Shown: one piece after another, positions 6,472 to 62,983 of the stretch
How positions within the stretch are numbered: position 1 is the stretch's first letter
How the letters are laid out: each line of letters starts with the position of its first letter
The notes under the pieces: model-generated
What the model was told of the DNA's origin: nothing
Database searches by the model: none
The model's input: only the letters and a program-made list of their open reading frames with translations
Made by a program: the position numbers and the translations under genes
Assembly: GCF_044324875.1 (NCBI RefSeq)
Contig: NZ_CP172185.1
From: Escherichia coli
GTDB lineage: Bacteria; Pseudomonadota; Gammaproteobacteria; Enterobacterales; Enterobacteriaceae
Reading direction: 5' to 3' (one strand)
DNA: 64,000 nt

Positions 6472-7233
6472 ATGCCCGATCAAACACAACAATTTTCGTT
6501 CAAGGTGCTCACCATCAATATTCACAAAGGCTTTACCGCGTTTAACCGACGCTTCATTTTGCCGGAACTTCGCGACGCCGTGCGTACCGTCAGCGCCGAT
6601 ATTGTTTGCCTGCAGGAAGTGATGGGCGCGCACGAAGTTCATCCGCTGCATGTGGAAAACTGGCCCGATACCTCGCACTACGAGTTTCTCGCCGACACCA
6701 TGTGGAGCGATTTCGCCTACGGTCGCAATGCCGTATACCCGGAAGGACATCACGGTAACGCCGTTCTTTCACGTTATCCCATTGAACATTATGAGAATCG
6801 TGATGTTTCGGTCGATGGTGCGGAAAAGCGCGGCGTGCTCTACTGCCGCATTGTGCCGCCGATGACCGGGAAAGCGATTCATGTGATGTGCGTACATCTG
6901 GGCCTGCGTGAGGCGCACCGTCAGGCGCAGCTTGCGATGCTCGCCGAATGGGTGAATGAGCTGCCGGACGGCGAACCGGTATTGGTGGCGGGTGATTTCA
7001 ACGACTGGCGGCAAAAAGCTAATCATCCGTTAAAAGTGCAGGCCGGGCTGGATGAGATATTTACCCGCGCCCACGGACGCCCGGCGCGCACGTTTCCGGT
7101 GCAATTTCCTCTACTACGACTGGACAGGATCTACGTCAAAAATGCCAGCGCCAGCGCGCCAACCGCGTTGCCGCTGCGGACATGGCGACACCTTTCTGAT
7201 CATGCCCCTTTAAGTGCGGAGATTCATTTATGA
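6472..7233 (+). CDS. ybhP: Endonuclease/exonuclease/phosphatase family protein YbhP
   Basis: 253 aa; EEP-fold signature residues; gene order. Confidence 0.85.
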
Positions 7234-8471
7234 AATGTAGCTGGCGCGAAGGCAATAAGATCCAGTTGCTGGAAAACGGCGAGCAATATTATCCCGCGGT
7301 GTTTAAGGCGATTGGCGAGGCGCAAGAACGTATCATTCTTGAAACGTTTATCTGGTTTGAGGATGACGTCGGCAAACAGCTGCATGCGGCGCTACTGGCA
7401 GCAGCACAACGCGGGGTTAAAGCGGAAGTCTTGCTGGATGGCTACGGTTCGCCGGATCTCAGCGATGAGTTTGTCAATGAACTGACGGCAGCTGGCGTGG
7501 TGTTCCGCTACTACGATCCCCGCCCTCGCCTTTTTGGTATGCGCACCAATGTGTTTCGCCGGATGCATCGCAAAATTGTGGTGATCGACGCGCGTATCGC
7601 CTTTATTGGCGGGCTGAATTACTCCGCCGAGCATATGTCCAGCTACGGTCCGGAGGCTAAACAGGATTACGCGGTACGCCTCGAAGGGCCGATTGTCGAA
7701 GATATTCTCCAGTTTGAGCTGGAAAACCTGCCAGGACAGAGCGCGGCACGACGCTGGTGGCGACGTCATCATAAAGCAGAAGAGAACCGCCAGCCGGGAG
7801 AAGCGCAGGTATTGCTGGTCTGGCGCGATAACGAAGAACATCGCGATGATATCGAACGCCACTATCTGAAAATGCTCACTCAGGCGCGGCGAGAAGTCAT
7901 TATCGCCAACGCCTACTTCTTCCCCGGCTATCGATTTTTACACGCCTTGCGTAAAGCGGCACGGCGCGGGGTGCGGATCAAACTGATCATTCAGGGCGAA
8001 CCGGATATGCCGATTGTCAGAGTCGGCGCGCGCTTGCTGTATAACTATCTGGTTAAAGGCGGCGTTCAGGTGTTTGAGTACCGCCGCCGTCCGCTCCACG
8101 GCAAAGTGGCATTGATGGACGATCACTGGGCGACGGTAGGGTCCAGTAATCTCGATCCGCTCAGTTTGTCACTGAATCTCGAAGCAAATGTCATCATCCA
8201 CGATCGTCATTTTAACCAGACGCTGCGTGATAATCTAAACGGCATTATCGCCGCAGATTGTCAGCAGGTCGATGAAACCATGCTGCCGAAACGCACCTGG
8301 TGGAACCTGACTAAAAGCGTGCTGGCCTTCCACTTTTTACGCCACTTCCCGGCTCTGGTGGGCTGGCTTCCGGCACACACACCACGTCTGGCGCAGGTTG
8401 ACCCGCCCGCCCAACCGACAATGGAAACGCAGGATCGGGTAGAAACTGAAAACACGGGGGTAAAACCCTGA
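7230..8471 (+). CDS. clsB: Cardiolipin synthase B (phospholipase D family)
   Basis: 413 aa with two HxK(x)4D motifs (HRKIVVID..., HGKVALMDD...); overlaps ybhP stop. Confidence 0.9.
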
Positions 8472-9427
8472 TGAGTAAATCACACCCGCGCTGGCGCTTA
8501 GCAAAGAAGATCCTCACCTGGCTGTTTTTTATCGCGGTGATTGTGTTGCTGGTGGTCTACGCCAAAAAGGTGGACTGGGAAGAGGTCTGGAAGGTCATCC
8601 GCGACTACAATCGCGTTGCGTTGCTCAGTGCGGTCGGGCTGGTGGTCGTCAGCTATCTGATTTACGGCTGCTATGACCTGCTCGCCCGCTTTTACTGCGG
8701 TCACAAACTGGCGAAGCGCCAGGTGATGCTGGTGTCGTTTATCTGCTACGCCTTCAACCTGACGCTCAGTACCTGGGTCGGCGGCATTGGTATGCGCTAT
8801 CGCTTGTACTCCCGGCTAGGGTTACCGGGCAGCACTATCACGCGGATTTTCTCGCTGAGTATTACCACCAACTGGCTGGGCTATATTTTACTGGCAGGGA
8901 TTATCTTTACCGCAGGCGTGGTGGAGTTGCCGGATCACTGGTATGTCGATCAAACTACACTGCGTATTCTCGGCATTGGCTTATTGATGATTATCGCGGT
9001 TTATTTGTGGTTTTGCGCTTTCGCGAAGCACCGCCATATGACCATCAAAGGGCAAAAACTGGTGCTGCCTTCATGGAAATTTGCCCTCGCCCAGATGCTG
9101 ATTTCCAGCGTTAACTGGATGGTAATGGGAGCAATTATCTGGCTGTTACTTGGTCAAAGCGTGAACTATTTCTTTGTACTGGGCGTGTTGCTGGTTAGTA
9201 GTATTGCCGGGGTGATTGTGCATATTCCGGCGGGGATTGGTGTGCTGGAAGCGGTATTTATCGCGCTACTGGCTGGGGAGCATACCTCCAAAGGCACAAT
9301 TATCGCCGCCCTGCTCGCTTACCGTGTGCTGTATTACTTTATCCCGCTGCTGCTGGCGCTGATCTGTTACCTGTTGCTGGAAAGCCAGGCGAAGAAGCTA
9401 CGAGCGAAAAATGAAGCGGCGATGTGA
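8471..9427 (+). CDS. ybhN: Inner membrane protein YbhN
   Basis: 318 aa polytopic membrane protein; start overlaps clsB stop. Confidence 0.85.
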   Translation: MSKSHPRWRLAKKILTWLFFIAVIVLLVVYAKKVDWEEVWKVIRDYNRVALLSAVGLVVVSYLIYGCYDLLARFYCGHKLAKRQVMLVSFICYAFNLTLSTWVGGIGMRYRLYSRLGLPGSTITRIFSLSITTNWLGYILLAGIIFTAGVVELPDHWYVDQTTLRILGIGLLMIIAVYLWFCAFAKHRHMTIKGQKLVLPSWKFALAQMLISSVNWMVMGAIIWLLLGQSVNYFFVLGVLLVSSIAGVIVHIPAGIGVLEAVFIALLAGEHTSKGTIIAALLAYRVLYYFIPLLLALICYLLLESQAKKLRAKNEAAM

Positions 9428-23581: not shown

Positions 23582-23596
23582 TTAGTATAAAAAAGC
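23582..23596. repeat. Prophage attachment core, bio-proximal junction (attR): ttagtataaaaaagc
   Basis: Exact 15-bp lambda common core; identical copy at 62969..62983; flanked on the phage side by Int arm-type sites (cagtcactat, gtgacctg). Confidence 0.9.
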
Positions 23597-57986: not shown

Positions 57987-58206
57987 GTCCACCTCGCCTG
58001 ATGTGGCTAAAAGCAGGCACATAACAGCTAAGTATTTTCAACCAGAGAGAATCCTTAGCGTTGTGGTGAATGCGGCTCAGCGCACGCGGGTTAAGGTTGA
58101 GGCTGACAGTCGACCTTCTGTGGATACCCACCCGCCTGGTGTGCAACCTTCGCCAGGCACCGGGAGGCACCCGGCACCACAACTTTATGCTGCGTGTAGT
58201 CTTGGC

Positions 58207-58250
58207 GGTACCAGCTTTTACCCTTGCTTCCGGCTGGTACCGTCCTTTTT
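58207..58250 (+). terminator. Rho-independent terminator/attenuator in leader upstream of yfdP-like gene
   Basis: 9-bp stem ggtaccagc / gctggtacc with 17-nt loop followed by gtccTTTTT; GC-rich region with overlapping non-coding-looking ORFs. Confidence 0.5.
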
Positions 58251-58387
58251 ACAAAACAGAGAAGAGCATTACCGGACGACGGGCTCATAACTCAATCCAT
58301 CCGGGCGGCTGCCACCGCAGGTGTTCTTCTCTGTTTTGTGGAGAAACTAATCGGCTTTGCAGGGTCGATATGATGAGGAGCAGCAAA

Positions 58388-58750
58388 ATGGCTAGCGAAC
58401 GCAGTACTGATGTGCAAGCATTTATCGGGGAGCTGGACGGCGGCGTATTTGAAACCAAAATCGGCGCAGTTCTCAGTGAAGTCGCTTCCGGTGTGATGAA
58501 CACGAAAACCAAAGGTAAGGTCTCACTCAACCTGGAAATCGAACCATTTGATGAAAACCGTGTGAAAATCAAACACAAACTCTCATATGTTCGCCCGACT
58601 AACCGCGGGAAAATTTCCGAAGAAGACACCACCGAAACGCCGATGTATGTCAATCGCGGTGGTCGCCTGACTATTCTGCAGGAAGACCAGGGACAATTAC
58701 TGACTCTTGCCGGTGAACCTGACGGAAAACTCCGCGCAGCAGGTCATTAA
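58388..58750 (+). CDS. YfdP-like early protein (CPS-53 family)
   Basis: 120 aa from ATG 58388 (MASERSTDVQAFIGELDGG...). Confidence 0.65.
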   Translation: MASERSTDVQAFIGELDGGVFETKIGAVLSEVASGVMNTKTKGKVSLNLEIEPFDENRVKIKHKLSYVRPTNRGKISEEDTTETPMYVNRGGRLTILQEDQGQLLTLAGEPDGKLRAAGH

Positions 58751-58815
58751 TATCGTTCTTAATTAACCGATTATTTATCTCATCACTGAATATCTTAATA
58801 TAGTGAGGACTTATT

Positions 58816-59640
58816 ATGTCTCAAAACTTAGACGCAACCGCATTTAATCAAATCCATGCCCTTATTTCTGCTCAGGGTGTTAATGAAATTATCAGTAAGA
58901 TTGGTGCCGATGCTGTGGCATTGCCTGAGAATTTCCGCATTCATGATCTGGAAAAATTTAATTTAAATCGCTTCCGTTTCCGTGGTGCGCTTTCCACTGC
59001 CAGCATCGATGACTTTACCCGTTATTCTAAAGATCTTGCAGATGAAGGCACCCGCTGCTTTATCGATGCTGATAATATGCGTGCCGTCAGTGTGCTTAAC
59101 CTGGGTACTATTGATGAACCAGGTCACGCAGATAACACCGCCACTCTCAAACTGAAAAAGACAGCACCGTTCTCTGCTCTGTTGTCTGTTAATGGCGAGC
59201 GTAACTCCCAGAAATCACTGGCAGAATGGATTGAAAACTGGGCCGACTACCTTGTGGGCTTTGATGCTAATGGTGACGCCATTCAGGCAACCAAAGCGGC
59301 GGCGGCTATCCGTAAAATCACAATTGAAGCGAACCAGACCGCTGATTTTGAAGATAATGACTTCAGCGGCAAACGCTCCCTGATGGAGTCTGTCGAAGCG
59401 AAGACCAAAGACATTATGCCAGTGGCATTTGAATTTAAATGCGTTCCGTTTGAAGGCCTGAAAGAACGTCCATTTAAATTACGCCTCAGCATTATCACTG
59501 GCGATCGTCCTGTACTGGTTCTGCGCATTATTCAGCTGGAAGCGGTGCAGGAAGAAATGGCTAACGAATTTCGTGATCTGCTTGTTGAGAAATTCAAAGA
59601 CAGCAAAGTAGAAACCTTTATTGGTACTTTCACCGCCTGA
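58816..59640 (+). CDS. YfdQ-like protein (DUF2303)
   Basis: 274 aa; size and context match the yfdQ family of CPS-53-type prophages. Confidence 0.7.
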
Positions 59641-59767
59641 TTTCATTACTGCAAATGCCCCTGCGGGGGAATTTATGGAAACGTAATTAACTCAATAATC
59701 GCCGGATGGTGAGGACTTCCTTTTACCAGAATTCAGCGCGGTGCAGCGCATATACGTGGAGAACAAA

Positions 59768-60304
59768 ATGTCATTTATTAAAACTTTTTCCGGGAAGCAT
59801 TTTTATTATGACAAGATAAATCAAGACGACATCGTTATTAACGATATCGCGGTTTCCCTTTCAAATATCTGTCGCTTTGCAGGACATCTTTCACATTTCT
59901 ACAGCGTCGCCCAACATGCGGTGCTTTGCAGCCAACTGGTGCCGCAGGAATTTGCTTTTGAAGCGTTAATGCATGATGCAACAGAAGCGTATTGCCAGGA
60001 CATCCCGGCGCCACTGAAACGCCTTCTTCCTGACTATAAACGGATGGAAGAAAAAATAGACGCCGTAATCCGTGAGAAATACGGGTTACCCCCAGTTATG
60101 AGTACACCCGTGAAATATGCCGATCTCATCATGCTGGCAACTGAACGCCGCGATCTCGGGCTTGATGATGGCTCTTTCTGGCCAGTACTGGAAGGTATCC
60201 CGGCAACAGAGATGTTCAAAGTTATTCCACTGGCACCGGGCCATGCCTACGGGATGTTTATGGAACGCTTCAACGAGTTATCGGAATTACGCAAATGTGC
60301 ATAA
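59768..60304 (+). CDS. HD-domain 5'-deoxynucleotidase, YfdR-like
   Basis: Start ATG 59768 (MSFIKTFSGKHFYY...) with SD ggag; HD motif (LMHDATEAY). Confidence 0.7.
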   Translation: MSFIKTFSGKHFYYDKINQDDIVINDIAVSLSNICRFAGHLSHFYSVAQHAVLCSQLVPQEFAFEALMHDATEAYCQDIPAPLKRLLPDYKRMEEKIDAVIREKYGLPPVMSTPVKYADLIMLATERRDLGLDDGSFWPVLEGIPATEMFKVIPLAPGHAYGMFMERFNELSELRKCA

Positions 60305-61173
60305 CTCATGTAGTTAGTTTTTCTGGCGGGAGAACATCCGCATATCTTGTTCACCTGATGGAAGAACAAAGAAAGGCTGGCAATAACGTCTGCTACATCT
60401 TTATGGATACCGGTTGCGAACATCCGCTGACATACCGCTTTATCCGGGAGGTTGTGAAGTTCTGGGACATACCACTAACTGTGTTACAGGTCGATATAAA
60501 TCCTGAGCTTGGGCAGCCAAATGGTTATACAGAATGGGAGCCAACGGATATTCAGACACGAATGCCGGTGCTTAAACCGTTTATGGACATGGTTAAAAAG
60601 TACGGCACGCCATACATCGGCGGCGCGTTCTGTACTGACAGGCTAAAACTCATCCCTTTCACGAAATACTGCGATAACCATTTCGGGCGAGGTAATTACA
60701 TCACATGGCTGGGTATTCGTGCAGACGAACCCCGTAGGCTGAAACCGAAATCGGGCGTCCGGTATCTTGCCGAGCTGTCAGATTTTGATAAGTCGGATGT
60801 TATCCGGTGGTGGCGAAAACAACCTTTTGATTTGCAAATCCCGGAGCATCTCGGGAACTGTGTTTTCTGCATCAAAAAGTCAACGCAAAAGCTGGGGCTT
60901 GCATGTAAAGACGAACCAGGTCTGATGCGAGTTTTTAATGAGCTGGTTACAGGCAAACACGTCAGGGATGGTCATCGCAGAACAGGTAAAGACATTATGT
61001 ACCGTGGTCACCTGACGCTTGACGGAATTGCCAGAATGTCTGCCAACAGCGACTACAGAAATTTGTATCAGGCGATGGTACAGGCCAGGCGATTCGATAC
61101 CGGCTCGTGTTCAGAGTCATGTGAAATCTGGGGTGATCAATTGGAATTGGAATTCGAAGAGGTAGGGGTATGA
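60295..61173 (+). CDS. PAPS reductase-like PP-loop ATP pyrophosphatase family protein
   Basis: 292 aa; N-terminal PP-loop SFSGGRTS (SGGxDS-type); C-terminal Cys cluster. Confidence 0.7.
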   Translation: MCITHVVSFSGGRTSAYLVHLMEEQRKAGNNVCYIFMDTGCEHPLTYRFIREVVKFWDIPLTVLQVDINPELGQPNGYTEWEPTDIQTRMPVLKPFMDMVKKYGTPYIGGAFCTDRLKLIPFTKYCDNHFGRGNYITWLGIRADEPRRLKPKSGVRYLAELSDFDKSDVIRWWRKQPFDLQIPEHLGNCVFCIKKSTQKLGLACKDEPGLMRVFNELVTGKHVRDGHRRTGKDIMYRGHLTLDGIARMSANSDYRNLYQAMVQARRFDTGSCSESCEIWGDQLELEFEEVGV

Positions 61174-61514
61174 CAACCGAAATTAACTACCATGCACTGC
61201 TTGAGCGCGCACGGAATAAAGTGCAGAGCATTGAGTTCGCCTTAACACAGAGTGCATTCGCTGAGATTCGCGCTGAGCTTGAAAATGATTTAGAACTGGC
61301 ACGGATTGCACTGGCATCTCTGGAAGTTGAGCCAGATGAACGCGCAGCCTATGAATTATTTATGGAAAAGCGTTTCGGTAAAACAGTCGATCGTCGGAGA
61401 GCAAAAAACGGCGATAACGAATACATGGCATGGGATATGACTCTCGGTTGGATCATCTGGCAGCAACGAGCTGGTATCCATTTTTCAACAATGTCACAAC
61501 AAGAGGTGAAATAA
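61170..61514 (+). CDS. Hypothetical early protein
   Basis: 114 aa; start overlaps stop of upstream gene. Confidence 0.45.
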   Translation: MTTEINYHALLERARNKVQSIEFALTQSAFAEIRAELENDLELARIALASLEVEPDERAAYELFMEKRFGKTVDRRRAKNGDNEYMAWDMTLGWIIWQQRAGIHFSTMSQQEVK

Positions 61515-61628: not shown

Positions 61629-61847
61629 ATGTACTTGACACTTCAGGAGTGGAACGCTCGCCAGCGACGCCCAAGAAGCCTTGAAACAGTTCGTCGATGG
61701 GTGCGCGAATGCAGGATATTCCCTCCTCCGGTTAAGGATGGAAGAGAGTATCTGTTCCACGAATCAGCGGTAAAGGTTGACTTAAATCGACCAGTAACAG
61801 GTAGCCTTTTGAAGAGGATCAGAAATGGGAAGAAGGCGAAGTCATGA
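61629..61847 (+). CDS. xis: Excisionase Xis (lambda type)
   Basis: 72 aa from ATG 61629 (MYLTLQEWNARQRRPRSLETVRRWVRECRIFPPPVKDGREYLFHESAVKVDLNRPVTGSLLKRIRNGKKAKS), matching lambda Xis; overlaps int start. Confidence 0.9.
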   Translation: MYLTLQEWNARQRRPRSLETVRRWVRECRIFPPPVKDGREYLFHESAVKVDLNRPVTGSLLKRIRNGKKAKS

Positions 61848-62895
61848 GCGCCGGGATTTACCCCCTAACCTTTATATAAGAAACAATGGATATTACTGCT
61901 ACAGGGACCCAAGGACGGGTAAAGAGTTCGGATTAGGCAGAGACAGGAGGATAGCAATTACTGAAGCAATACAGGCAAACATTGAGTTATTTTCAGGACA
62001 CAAACACAAGCCTCTGACAGCGAGAATCAACAGTGATAATTCTGTTACGTTACATTCATGGCTTGATCGCTACGAAAAAATCCTCGCCAGCAGAGGAATC
62101 AAGCAGAAGACACTTATAAATTACATGAGCAAAATTAAAGCAATAAGGAGGGGGCTACCTGATGTTCCACTTGAAGACATCACCACAAAAGAAATTGCAG
62201 CAATGCTCAATGGATACATAGACGAGGGCAAGGCGGCGTCAGCCAAGTTAATCAGATCAACACTGAGCGATGCATTCCGAGAGGCAATAGCTGAAGGCCA
62301 TATAACAACAAACCCGGTCGCTGCCACTCGCGCAGCAAAATCAGAGGTAAGGAGATCAAGACTTACGGCTGACGAATACCTGAAAATTTATCAAGCAGCA
62401 GAATCATCACCATGTTGGCTTAGACTTGCAATGGAACTGGCTGTTGTTACCGGGCAGCGAGTTGGTGATTTATGCGAAATGAAGTGGTCTGATATCGTAG
62501 ATGGATATCTTTATGTCGAGCAAAGCAAAACAGGCGTAAAAATTGCCATCCCAACAGCATTGCATGTTGATGCTCTCGGAATATCAATGAAGGAAACACT
62601 TGATAAATGCAAAGAGATTCTTGGCGGAGAAACCATAATTGCATCTACTCGTCGCGAACCGCTTTCATCCGGCACAGTATCAAGGTATTTTATGCGCGCA
62701 CGAAAAGCATCAGGTCTTTCCTTCGAAGGGGATCCGCCTACCTTTCACGAGTTGCGCAGTTTGTCTGCAAGACTCTATGAGAAGCAGATAAGCGATAAGT
62801 TTGCTCAACATCTTCTCGGGCATAAGTCGGACACCATGGCATCACAGTATCGTGATGACAGAGGCAGGGAGTGGGACAAAATTGAAATCAAATAA
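61825..62895 (+). CDS. int: Integrase Int (lambda-type tyrosine recombinase)
   Basis: 356 aa, essentially lambda Int (MGRRRSHERRDLPPNLYIRNNGYYCYRDPRTGKEF... with R-H-R-Y catalytic residues); adjacent to the gal-proximal att core. Confidence 0.95.
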   Translation: MGRRRSHERRDLPPNLYIRNNGYYCYRDPRTGKEFGLGRDRRIAITEAIQANIELFSGHKHKPLTARINSDNSVTLHSWLDRYEKILASRGIKQKTLINYMSKIKAIRRGLPDVPLEDITTKEIAAMLNGYIDEGKAASAKLIRSTLSDAFREAIAEGHITTNPVAATRAAKSEVRRSRLTADEYLKIYQAAESSPCWLRLAMELAVVTGQRVGDLCEMKWSDIVDGYLYVEQSKTGVKIAIPTALHVDALGISMKETLDKCKEILGGETIIASTRREPLSSGTVSRYFMRARKASGLSFEGDPPTFHELRSLSARLYEKQISDKFAQHLLGHKSDTMASQYRDDRGREWDKIEIK

Positions 62896-62968: not shown

Positions 62969-62983
62969 TTAGTATAAAAAAGC
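62969..62983. repeat. Prophage attachment core, int-proximal junction (attL): ttagtataaaaaagc
   Basis: Identical to the 23582..23596 copy; phage-side arm carries lambda P-arm-like sequence (gactgatagtgacctgttcgttgcaacaaattgataagcaatgc). Confidence 0.9.

Follow-up and report, generated by a model that had tools for sequence, protein, structure and literature searches.

The block of early prophage genes described here occupies positions 58388–61514 of a 64,000-nucleotide stretch of Escherichia coli DNA (contig NZ_CP172185.1; the whole stretch is referred to below as the window). Among its closest known counterparts is the yfdP-yfdQ-yfdR-yfdS-yfdT cluster of prophage CPS-53 (KpLE1) in E. coli K-12, with which it shares gene order, orientation and overlaps, as well as the C-terminal two-thirds of YfdT. 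CPS-53 uses torI/intS and is integrated at argW, whereas the prophage examined here looks complete and carries lambda xis/int at att-lambda. The closest isolated phages are the Shigella phages SfIV and SfV (orf28-32 in SfV), with 97% DNA identity over the yfdP-yfdQ-yfdR part, and SfIV additionally shares the immunity region and an ECs1072-family gene with this prophage. In both Shigella phages, however, yfdR is followed by yfdS/yfdT-type genes, xis/int are different and a ninC-like gene is absent.

The fourth gene of the block has its relatives elsewhere. Its product and lambda NinC (ORF-290, 290 amino acids (aa)) have the motifs SGGRTS, CTDRLK, GNCxFC and CSESCE in common and are both members of phrog_424. 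In lambda, ninC is placed between ninB and ninD in the rightward ninR region, and the present copy in the leftward pL operon. To our knowledge, no function has been assigned to lambda NinC. Vibrio phage 44E38.1 also has yfdP- and yfdQ-like genes, a pair like that of the block, next to a gene for a single-stranded DNA-binding protein (SSB); its protein p0018 has a C-terminal Dam domain and a neighbour, p0019, whereas the protein in the window stands alone. DndC and SspD share with the NinC-like protein the PP-loop ATP pyrophosphatase fold, conserved cysteines and the Pfam superfamily. SspD is the PP-loop enzyme of single-strand phosphorothioation, but only its N-terminal half aligns with the NinC-like protein.

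Five open reading frames (ORFs) were confirmed on the plus strand at 58388–61514, with exact boundaries; they are co-directional, and some of them overlap:

58388–58750, plus strand: yfdP, 120 aa, the conserved partner upstream of yfdQ (phrog_204, E = 1e-49)
58816–59640, plus strand: yfdQ, 274 aa, DUF2303 (308.7 bits against a cut-off of 26.6, E = 3.9e-92)
59768–60304, plus strand: yfdR, 178 aa, HD-domain phosphohydrolase (phrog_318, E = 9e-110)
60295–61173, plus strand: PP-loop gene of the lambda NinC family, 292 aa with five conserved cysteines, in the yfdS slot (phrog_424, E = 9.5e-91)
61170–61514, plus strand: YfdT-family gene, 114 aa (phrog_660, E = 6.5e-24)

These five early genes, yfdP, yfdQ and yfdR followed by a lambda ninC relative and a gene resembling yfdT, are already catalogued, and the block is ordinary, annotated before and without sequence novelty. 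[quoted passage not shown] Pfam placed DUF2303 on YfdQ, a sub-threshold HD/YfbR-like match on YfdR and PAPS_reduct on the PP-loop protein, while PHROGs assigned the five proteins to phage families 204, 210, 318, 424 and 660. Judging from homologues and over-expression data, the better-supported roles would be takeover of host replication for YfdR, YfdQ and YfdT and anti-restriction or DNA modification for the NinC family. For the block as a whole we lean, with moderate confidence, towards host takeover and anti-restriction carried out by exchangeable early-operon modules, through mechanisms that we infer. The block is the distal section of the early-left (pL) operon and would be a mosaic of accessory modules, each exchangeable on its own, rather than a single enzyme pathway.

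All genes of the block are under purifying selection. The ratio of non-synonymous to synonymous substitution rates (dN/dS) against relatives ranged from 0.02 to 0.2: 0.02 for YfdR and 0.08 for YfdQ against K-12, and 0.09 for the NinC-like protein, 0.18 for YfdP and 0.20 for YfdQ against the Stx2 phage copies. Between the NinC-like protein and lambda NinC the synonymous sites are saturated, yet 78% of the residues are retained. Such ratios mark maintained genes and not chance ORFs; no gene of the block appears degenerate. Translation signals are in place as well. A GAGGAG Shine-Dalgarno sequence lies 8 nucleotides (nt) upstream of yfdP, and the longest ORF of yfdR begins at a GTG at position 59741. 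The end of yfdR and the ATG of the PP-loop gene overlap by 10 nt, and the stop codon of the PP-loop gene overlaps the start of the 114-aa ORF through ATGA, which suggests that these three genes are translationally coupled.

The PP-loop protein is 79% identical to lambda NinC over residues 2–287 (tblastn), and its similarity to the NinC family is full-length (phrog_424, as listed above, and phrog_33262, E = 1.8e-90). On this sequence evidence it is a member of the lambda NinC family, an identity that the initial annotation had missed. Copies with 92–93% identity occur in Stx2a phages; one of these, VT2phi_272, has a divergent yfdP-yfdQ pair, and its NinC-like gene is the second one downstream of that pair. 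An exhaustive profile search with the family returned 1593 cluster representatives at E < 1e-3, including 118 at E < 1e-30. Across an alignment of 38 family sequences, reaching down to 28% identity, residues S10, G12, S15, E42, C113, K118, G140, R142, D144, E145, R148, G187, N188, C189, K195, C272 and C276 are invariant, and C192 is present in at least 90% of the sequences; the SGGxxS loop, C113, K118, R142/D144/E145, GNC189, C272 and C276 are also kept in lambda NinC.

The similarity to sulfonucleotide reductases is confined to the N-terminal part of the protein. The Pfam PAPS_reduct match (35.2 bits against a cut-off of 22.5) covers only residues 5–71, and the NCBIfam CysH model PRK02090 scores 20.1 bits against a cut-off of 154, over residues 5–70 only. 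Sequence matches to CysH and adenosine 5'-phosphosulfate (APS) reductases in the PDB have E-values of 0.003–0.008 over about 60 residues. The ATP-type SGGxxS loop is kept, with SFSGGRTS aligned to SFSGAE in APS reductase 2goy. PAPS and APS reductases carry their catalytic cysteine in a C-terminal redox motif, ECG[LI]H. This motif is absent from the PP-loop protein, whose C-terminus reads ...DTGSCSESCEIWGDQLELEFEEVGV and bears the motif CSESCE, and it is equally absent throughout the 38-sequence family alignment. By these sequence marks we judge the protein not to be an enzymatic PAPS reductase.

An AlphaFold2 model of the NinC-like protein (mean predicted local distance difference test (pLDDT) score of 88.9) shows a PP-loop alpha/beta nucleotide-binding core. 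The best Foldseek matches, restricted to this core, were 6vpu, 2goy and 1sur (E-values from 5e-5 to 4e-4, TM-scores of 0.36–0.50), and the nearest solved folds comprise CysH/APS reductase, the [4Fe-4S] enzyme LarE, CysD, TilS and TtuA/NcsA, at TM-scores of 0.3–0.5. The CSESC tail was modelled at low confidence and may be flexible. We infer that the protein is an adenylating enzyme that depends on ATP and handles sulfur at a cysteine or Fe-S site; mechanistically, it would be an ATP pyrophosphatase whose cysteine cluster probably holds Fe-S or serves as a thiol relay.

The company that the family keeps points to DNA. Among the ten longest NinC relatives scanned, six are fused, at either terminus, to Dam or MethyltransfD12, that is, to a DNA N6-adenine methyltransferase. 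Over 283 aa, which span the entire PAPS module and include every conserved cysteine, the NinC-like protein shares 55% identity (E = 2e-110) and all motifs with the PAPS domain of p0018 from Vibrio phage 44E38.1, a 479-aa PAPS-Dam fusion. Moving p0018 together with the adjacent p0019 into a sensitive phage let that phage escape host Dnd (Piel et al., bioRxiv 10.1101/2021.05.05.442762). In the PADLOC library the best match of the NinC-like protein is SspD (E = 1.2e-14; residues 5–152 on profile positions 2–125 of 277), with BrxP as a weaker match, and no DndC or SspD model is found among its NCBIfam matches at E < 0.01. In the literature, a 2026 preprint counts PAPS reductases as candidates for Aca-regulated anti-defence genes, and a preprint by Feussner states that a phage PAPS reductase evades Dnd, for which Piel et al. 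is the probable source; a 2024 paper notes the lambda homologue and calls the function open.

Distant members of the family occur in varied neighbourhoods. In a metagenome contig (1100–3803), a homologue with 32% identity is overlapped from upstream by a translationally coupled glutaredoxin gene and followed by genes for PhoH, DUF3310 and ferritin, and another distant homologue adjoins replication genes and an N6/N4 methyltransferase. This is a small sample, and it fits thiol or iron chemistry on DNA.

The NinC-like protein probably has DNA as its substrate and an anti-restriction role, as the comparison with its homologues suggests. Its most likely function is that of an enzyme of anti-restriction or DNA modification working on DNA; given the Dam fusions and the 55%-identical Vibrio domain, it would help phage DNA to escape phosphorothioation-dependent (Dnd-type) restriction. 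Members of the family, including lambda NinC, may install or mimic a phosphorothioate-type sulfur mark via host IscS, or they may subvert host Dnd/Ssp components. The initial annotation had proposed counter-defence or DNA modification among the candidate roles of the block, and for the PP-loop protein the same fusions and the same domain, from a protein implicated in anti-Dnd activity, speak in favour of that proposal.

The second module centres on YfdR, which is 98.3% identical to K-12 YfdR (175 of 178 residues the same) and retains an intact HD motif (Q-H49-A, M-H68-D69-A, Q-D77-I). Its score against Pfam YfbR-like is 24.1 bits, just below the cut-off of 25.9, and it falls far short of PRK03826, the NCBIfam equivalog of the YfbR 5'-deoxynucleotidase (19.9 bits against a cut-off of 122). 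The nearest solved relative is Atu1052 (PDB 2gz4, E = 2e-13), not YfbR. Purified K-12 YfdR binds domain I of the host initiator DnaA, with DnaA Phe46 being important, and competes moderately with DiaA and DnaB; as a nucleotidase it is a weak 5'-deoxynucleotidase whose nucleotide affinity is much lower than that of YfbR (Noguchi and Katayama 2016, PMC4776307). In the same study, a minimal multicopy set of yfdQ, yfdR plus one of the two genes yfdS and yfdT inhibited initiation at oriC in vivo and in vitro, and the authors proposed a lambda P-like role in shutting off host initiation. The roles of the block, called unassigned at the outset, were thus unassigned only in part.

This published inhibitory set plausibly remains intact here, to judge from the sequences, with yfdQ, yfdR and a YfdT-type protein all retained. 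The present YfdR would be expected to bind DnaA on the strength of its 98% identity to the K-12 protein, and, together with YfdQ and YfdS or YfdT, to block oriC initiation when over-expressed; the YfdT-like protein probably substitutes for YfdS/YfdT in this DnaA-directed activity. Such a block would favour phage replication after induction, a role that YfdR may be expected to play during phage growth. More speculatively, as a weak deoxynucleoside monophosphate (dNMP) phosphatase YfdR may destroy dNMP-derived alarm signals sensed by defences, such as m6-dAMP. In Pseudomonas phage vB_PstS-pAN, a gene for a YfdR-like HD protein (E = 7e-28) stands a few genes past yfdP-yfdQ, flanked by genes for a 3'-5' exonuclease and a C5 DNA cytosine methyltransferase (locus 6892–8819). 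YfdR-type genes adjoin DNA-modification genes in more than one lineage.

YfdP and YfdQ are 99.2% and 98.9% identical, respectively, to their counterparts in K-12 CPS-53, and residues 8–272 of YfdQ align to positions 3–269 of the 269-position DUF2303 profile, that is, to its full length. A YfdP homologue stands directly upstream of a YfdQ homologue in distant phages as well (E-values from 1e-18 to 1e-42), as established by tblastn against a phage collection: Pseudomonas phage pAN, Vibrio phages 64E30.1 and 44E38.1, Xanthomonas phage MET23-P3 and Stx2 phage VT2phi_272. A search for related loci by YfdQ alignment had returned only E. coli prophages with about 99% identity; it served the cassette statistics given below and was set aside as a source of distant context. 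In each distant phage the neighbours of the pair are genes for SSB, RecT/annealase, exonuclease, Gam or DnaQ-like proteins. By this gene-neighbourhood evidence, yfdP-yfdQ is a conserved unit of phage DNA-metabolism modules, and the pair most likely acts on DNA-replication or recombination intermediates. A complete annealase/exonuclease set is present beside YfdQ in phages JC1, VT2phi_272, MET23-P3 and 44E38.1, so YfdQ is no replacement for such a set.

A structure exists for a relative of YfdQ. PDB entry 9O7M, named 'YfdQ protein' and containing 36 chains, matches YfdQ at E = 6e-44 with about 40% identity, and its sequence is 98.8% identical to a protein of the Xanthomonas/Xylella phage MET23-P3 (4010–4834 of its locus). 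A literature search found no paper on 9O7M or on a YfdQ structure, and the structure apparently is solved and unpublished. The idea that 9O7M was part of a virion reconstruction found no support: neither the MET23-P3 capsid protein, nor its YfdP-like protein, nor the downstream neighbour has a near-identical PDB entry. Our AlphaFold2 model of YfdQ (pLDDT 76) is without an informative structural neighbour.

The relation to K-12 at the DNA level explains the composition of the block. Homology to K-12 covers 58369–60302 at 96.9% identity, ends at the first base of the yfdR stop codon (60302–60304) and resumes at 61305, inside the last ORF; this gap marks 60303–61304 as a replaced cassette. Where K-12 has yfdS (DUF551) and the 5' end of yfdT, the window has the ninC-like gene and a different YfdT N-terminus. 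Accordingly divided, the YfdT-like protein is near-identical to K-12 YfdT over its C-terminal ~66 aa and differs over its N-terminal ~45 aa; it has no Pfam or PDB match. Among 83 loci with a yfdQ of about 99% identity, YfdP was found in all 83 and YfdR in 81; YfdS was present in 59 loci and the NinC-like protein in 12 others, with no locus (0/83) carrying YfdS and the NinC-like protein together. Several other gene families also fill the slot downstream of yfdR, and the surrounding Ea22/YfdS/YfdT-type proteins have been described as mosaic in the literature. The site downstream of yfdR would thus be a recombination hotspot at which yfdS, the ninC-like gene and other cassettes replace one another, and it may be a hotspot for anti-defence cassettes.

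Of 5426 complete E. coli genomes, 4230 contain parts of the block and 29 have the full five-gene arrangement, at 99.4% DNA identity; in these copies RefSeq labels the products YfdP, YfdQ family, 5'-deoxynucleotidase, PAPS reductase family protein and hypothetical protein. The ninC-like cassette alone is present in 428 E. coli genomes, with 72 copies on plasmids. The listed plasmids that carry it are about 95–98 kb in size (e.g., NZ_CP077484.1) and could be phage-plasmids.

The block belongs to the pL operon of an intact-looking SfV/SfIV-like lambdoid prophage of about 39.4 kb at attB-lambda. The extent of the prophage follows from two exact copies of the lambda att core, and ybhC adjoins int on the far side in the 99.4%-identical genome, which agrees with the att-lambda site. 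At att-lambda, an SfV/SfIV-like phage body is here joined with the xis/int of lambda. The block's location between the immunity region and xis, as first described, was confirmed by the repressor gene upstream and by xis from 61629 onwards. The features around the block are as follows:

53077–53762, minus strand: Dam-family (PF05869) adenine methyltransferase gene, split into ORFs 53409–53762 and 53077–53424
56398–57072: S24/LexA-type repressor gene, followed by a terminator at 57084–57103
57112–57139, plus strand: pL-like sigma-70 promoter, TTGACA-16-CATAAT, with 11 of 12 consensus matches (a consensus match only)
within 57292–57919, plus strand: 73-aa ORF (orf73; phrog_1744), between pL and the small RNA (sRNA)-like element
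within 57292–57919, antisense: ECs1072-family gene of 144 aa (NCBIfam score 157.8 bits, cut-off 70)
58042–58253, plus strand: STnc100/PasD-family prophage sRNA-like element (Rfam STnc100, 42.8 bits, gathering score 47, E = 5e-8)
61629–61847, plus strand: lambda-type xis (Pfam Exc, E = 1e-40), which with int marks the end of the operon
61825–62895, plus strand: lambda-type int (RefSeq annotation of the 99.4%-identical locus)
62969–62983, minus strand: lambda att core GCTTTTTTATACTAA, with a second exact copy at 23582–23596 (0 matches expected by chance)

The pL-like promoter probably drives the entire block, as its sequence and position suggest. Just upstream of yfdP, the STnc100-like element folds into a long-range closing helix around four hairpins, followed by a 13-bp hairpin with a U-run (fold energy of -85.6 kcal/mol, z = -2.3); the 3' hairpin scores 23 bits against Rfam DicF and resembles an intrinsic terminator. 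The STnc100/PasD family of prophage sRNAs was described in a 2026 preprint. A 226-aa ORF at 58070–58750 (gp34 in SfIV) was considered as a coding extension of yfdP and rejected because it overlaps this RNA, PGAP calls it frameshifted and K-12 yfdP starts with MASERS. Both this ORF and the 'frameshifted hypothetical' that PGAP annotates across the element are probably non-coding.

The ECs1072-family gene overlaps the 73-aa ORF, is convergent with the early operon and, with a presence in just 9 of the 83 related loci, behaves as a moron would. No PADLOC match to a known defence system was obtained for YfdP, YfdQ, YfdR, the YfdT-like protein, the ECs1072-family protein or orf73, and on this result the idea of a known defence system was dropped. 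The Dam-family gene on the opposite strand, intact at ~217 aa in Stx2c phages, is here split because a C-run at about 53472 is shorter by 1 nt (C5 to C4); this deletion may mean a pseudogene or a phase-variable tract, or it may be an error of sequencing. Its presence in the prophage is of note, as NinC-family proteins are often fused to the same methyltransferase family.

Several observations weigh against host takeover and anti-restriction as the functions of the block. On the anti-restriction side, the Vibrio transfer joined p0018 and p0019, so the PAPS domain alone is unproven as the cause of escape, and tblastn found no p0019 homologue in the window. The NinC-like protein ends at residue 292 without a Dam fusion, the Dam-family gene of the prophage being separate and frameshifted. 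The SspD match spans the N-terminal half only, DndC profile matches are marginal (E = 0.006–0.007), and an Fe-S cluster would be deduced from conserved cysteines only. No DndA/D/E or SspA/B/C partners are adjacent: the neighbours are yfdR, the YfdT-like gene, xis and int, and none of the neighbours compared with PADLOC gave a match. On the takeover side, a yfdQRST deletion was without a replication phenotype, and over-expression was the only condition under which the DnaA effect appeared, with the authors allowing for a possible artefact (PMC4776307). The fold of YfdQ gave no clue to its function, and a DUF2303 protein (gp10) is reported in virions of Burkholderia phage JC1, which a place in a recombination module leaves unexplained.

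Three other explanations were weighed against this reading. The initial annotation gave the block a nucleotide-metabolism flavour. On this view, YfdR would serve as a dNMP phosphatase and the PP-loop protein, as a viral 'cysH', would have a nucleotide or sulfonucleotide for its substrate, so as to reshape precursor pools or blunt nucleotide-based defences. The database names invite this view, with YfdR called a 5'-deoxynucleotidase in RefSeq and phrog_318 annotated as dNMP phosphatase, and so do the intact HD motif, the Pfam PAPS_reduct match, the PAPS/APS reductases as nearest solved folds and the coupling of one distant homologue to a glutaredoxin gene, as expected of a thiol-dependent reductase. 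The full-length comparisons tell against it: YfdR is far below the YfbR cut-off, and its reported nucleotide affinity is low; the PP-loop protein, a NinC-family member, is far below the CysH cut-off, with a Pfam match limited to its first 71 residues. Its SGGxxS loop is of the ATP type, which true sulfonucleotide reductases no longer have, it is without ECG[LI]H, and the fusion partners of its family are DNA methyltransferases, not metabolic enzymes. We consider manipulation of nucleotide pools rather improbable, and among the roles proposed for these enzymes it is the weakest option.

A recombination or repair module standing in for lambda exo/bet/gam, with YfdP/YfdQ as DNA-binding scaffolds, YfdR as an HD nuclease/phosphatase and NinC as an Orf/Rap partner, draws on the genomic position, as the block occupies the place of the lambda Red genes and no Red/RecT/Erf-type recombination gene was found among the ORFs and Pfam scans of the early arms (~50.5–62.9 kb). 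The neighbours of yfdP-yfdQ in other phages (SSB, RecT, exonuclease, Gam), the location of lambda ninC between ninB (orf) and ninG (rap), a large assembly indicated by the 36 chains of the YfdQ-homologue structure and the mild sensitivity of a yfdQ deletion to methyl methanesulfonate and H2O2 (PMC4776307) point the same way. Yet the four phages named above have a full annealase/exonuclease set besides YfdQ, YfdQ has no fold similarity to Rad52, RecT, Gam or nucleases, and YfdR shows no nuclease motif beyond the generic HD motif, which makes this module unlikely. Genes that benefit the lysogen through stress tolerance (morons), or decaying passengers, and in either case not for phage growth, would account for the persistence of the K-12 copies in a defective prophage, for the reported H2O2 sensitivity of yfdQ and yfdS deletions (PMC4776307), for the abundance of block pieces across E. 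coli genomes and for the lack of a replication phenotype in the yfdQRST deletion. However, with pL and an intrinsic terminator upstream of them, the genes are expected to be repressed as long as the repressor of a lysogen is active; they are under strong purifying selection across phages of several genera, and their order is conserved in SfIV and SfV, which are functional phages, as well as in phages of Vibrio and Xanthomonas. We regard this last explanation as very unlikely.

Host takeover together with anti-restriction remains the reading that we favour for the block. A wider version of it, in which NinC-family proteins are widespread stand-alone ATP/Fe-S enzymes against phosphorothioate-dependent restriction, the site after yfdR is a hotspot for anti-defence cassettes and YfdR destroys alarm signals, is doubtful when all of its parts are taken jointly.

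What can be said of the family has consequences for how such genes are read. The lambdoid-prophage gene widely labelled 'PAPS reductase' or 'viral cysH' is NinC and fails the tests for a sulfate-assimilation enzyme, and caution is due in virome studies, where NinC-type genes should not be counted as sulfur-metabolism auxiliary genes. The yfdP-yfdQ genes emerge as a pair that is conserved and goes together with SSB and recombination modules of phages. The comparison also links items that are usually treated separately, namely lambda NinC, the Dam fusions and a 55%-identical domain in a cassette that defeats Dnd, and it opens a direct experimental route to the decades-old question of what lambda NinC does. 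If the proposed role is true, the NinC family would represent a widespread anti-restriction function directed against phosphorothioate-dependent defences.

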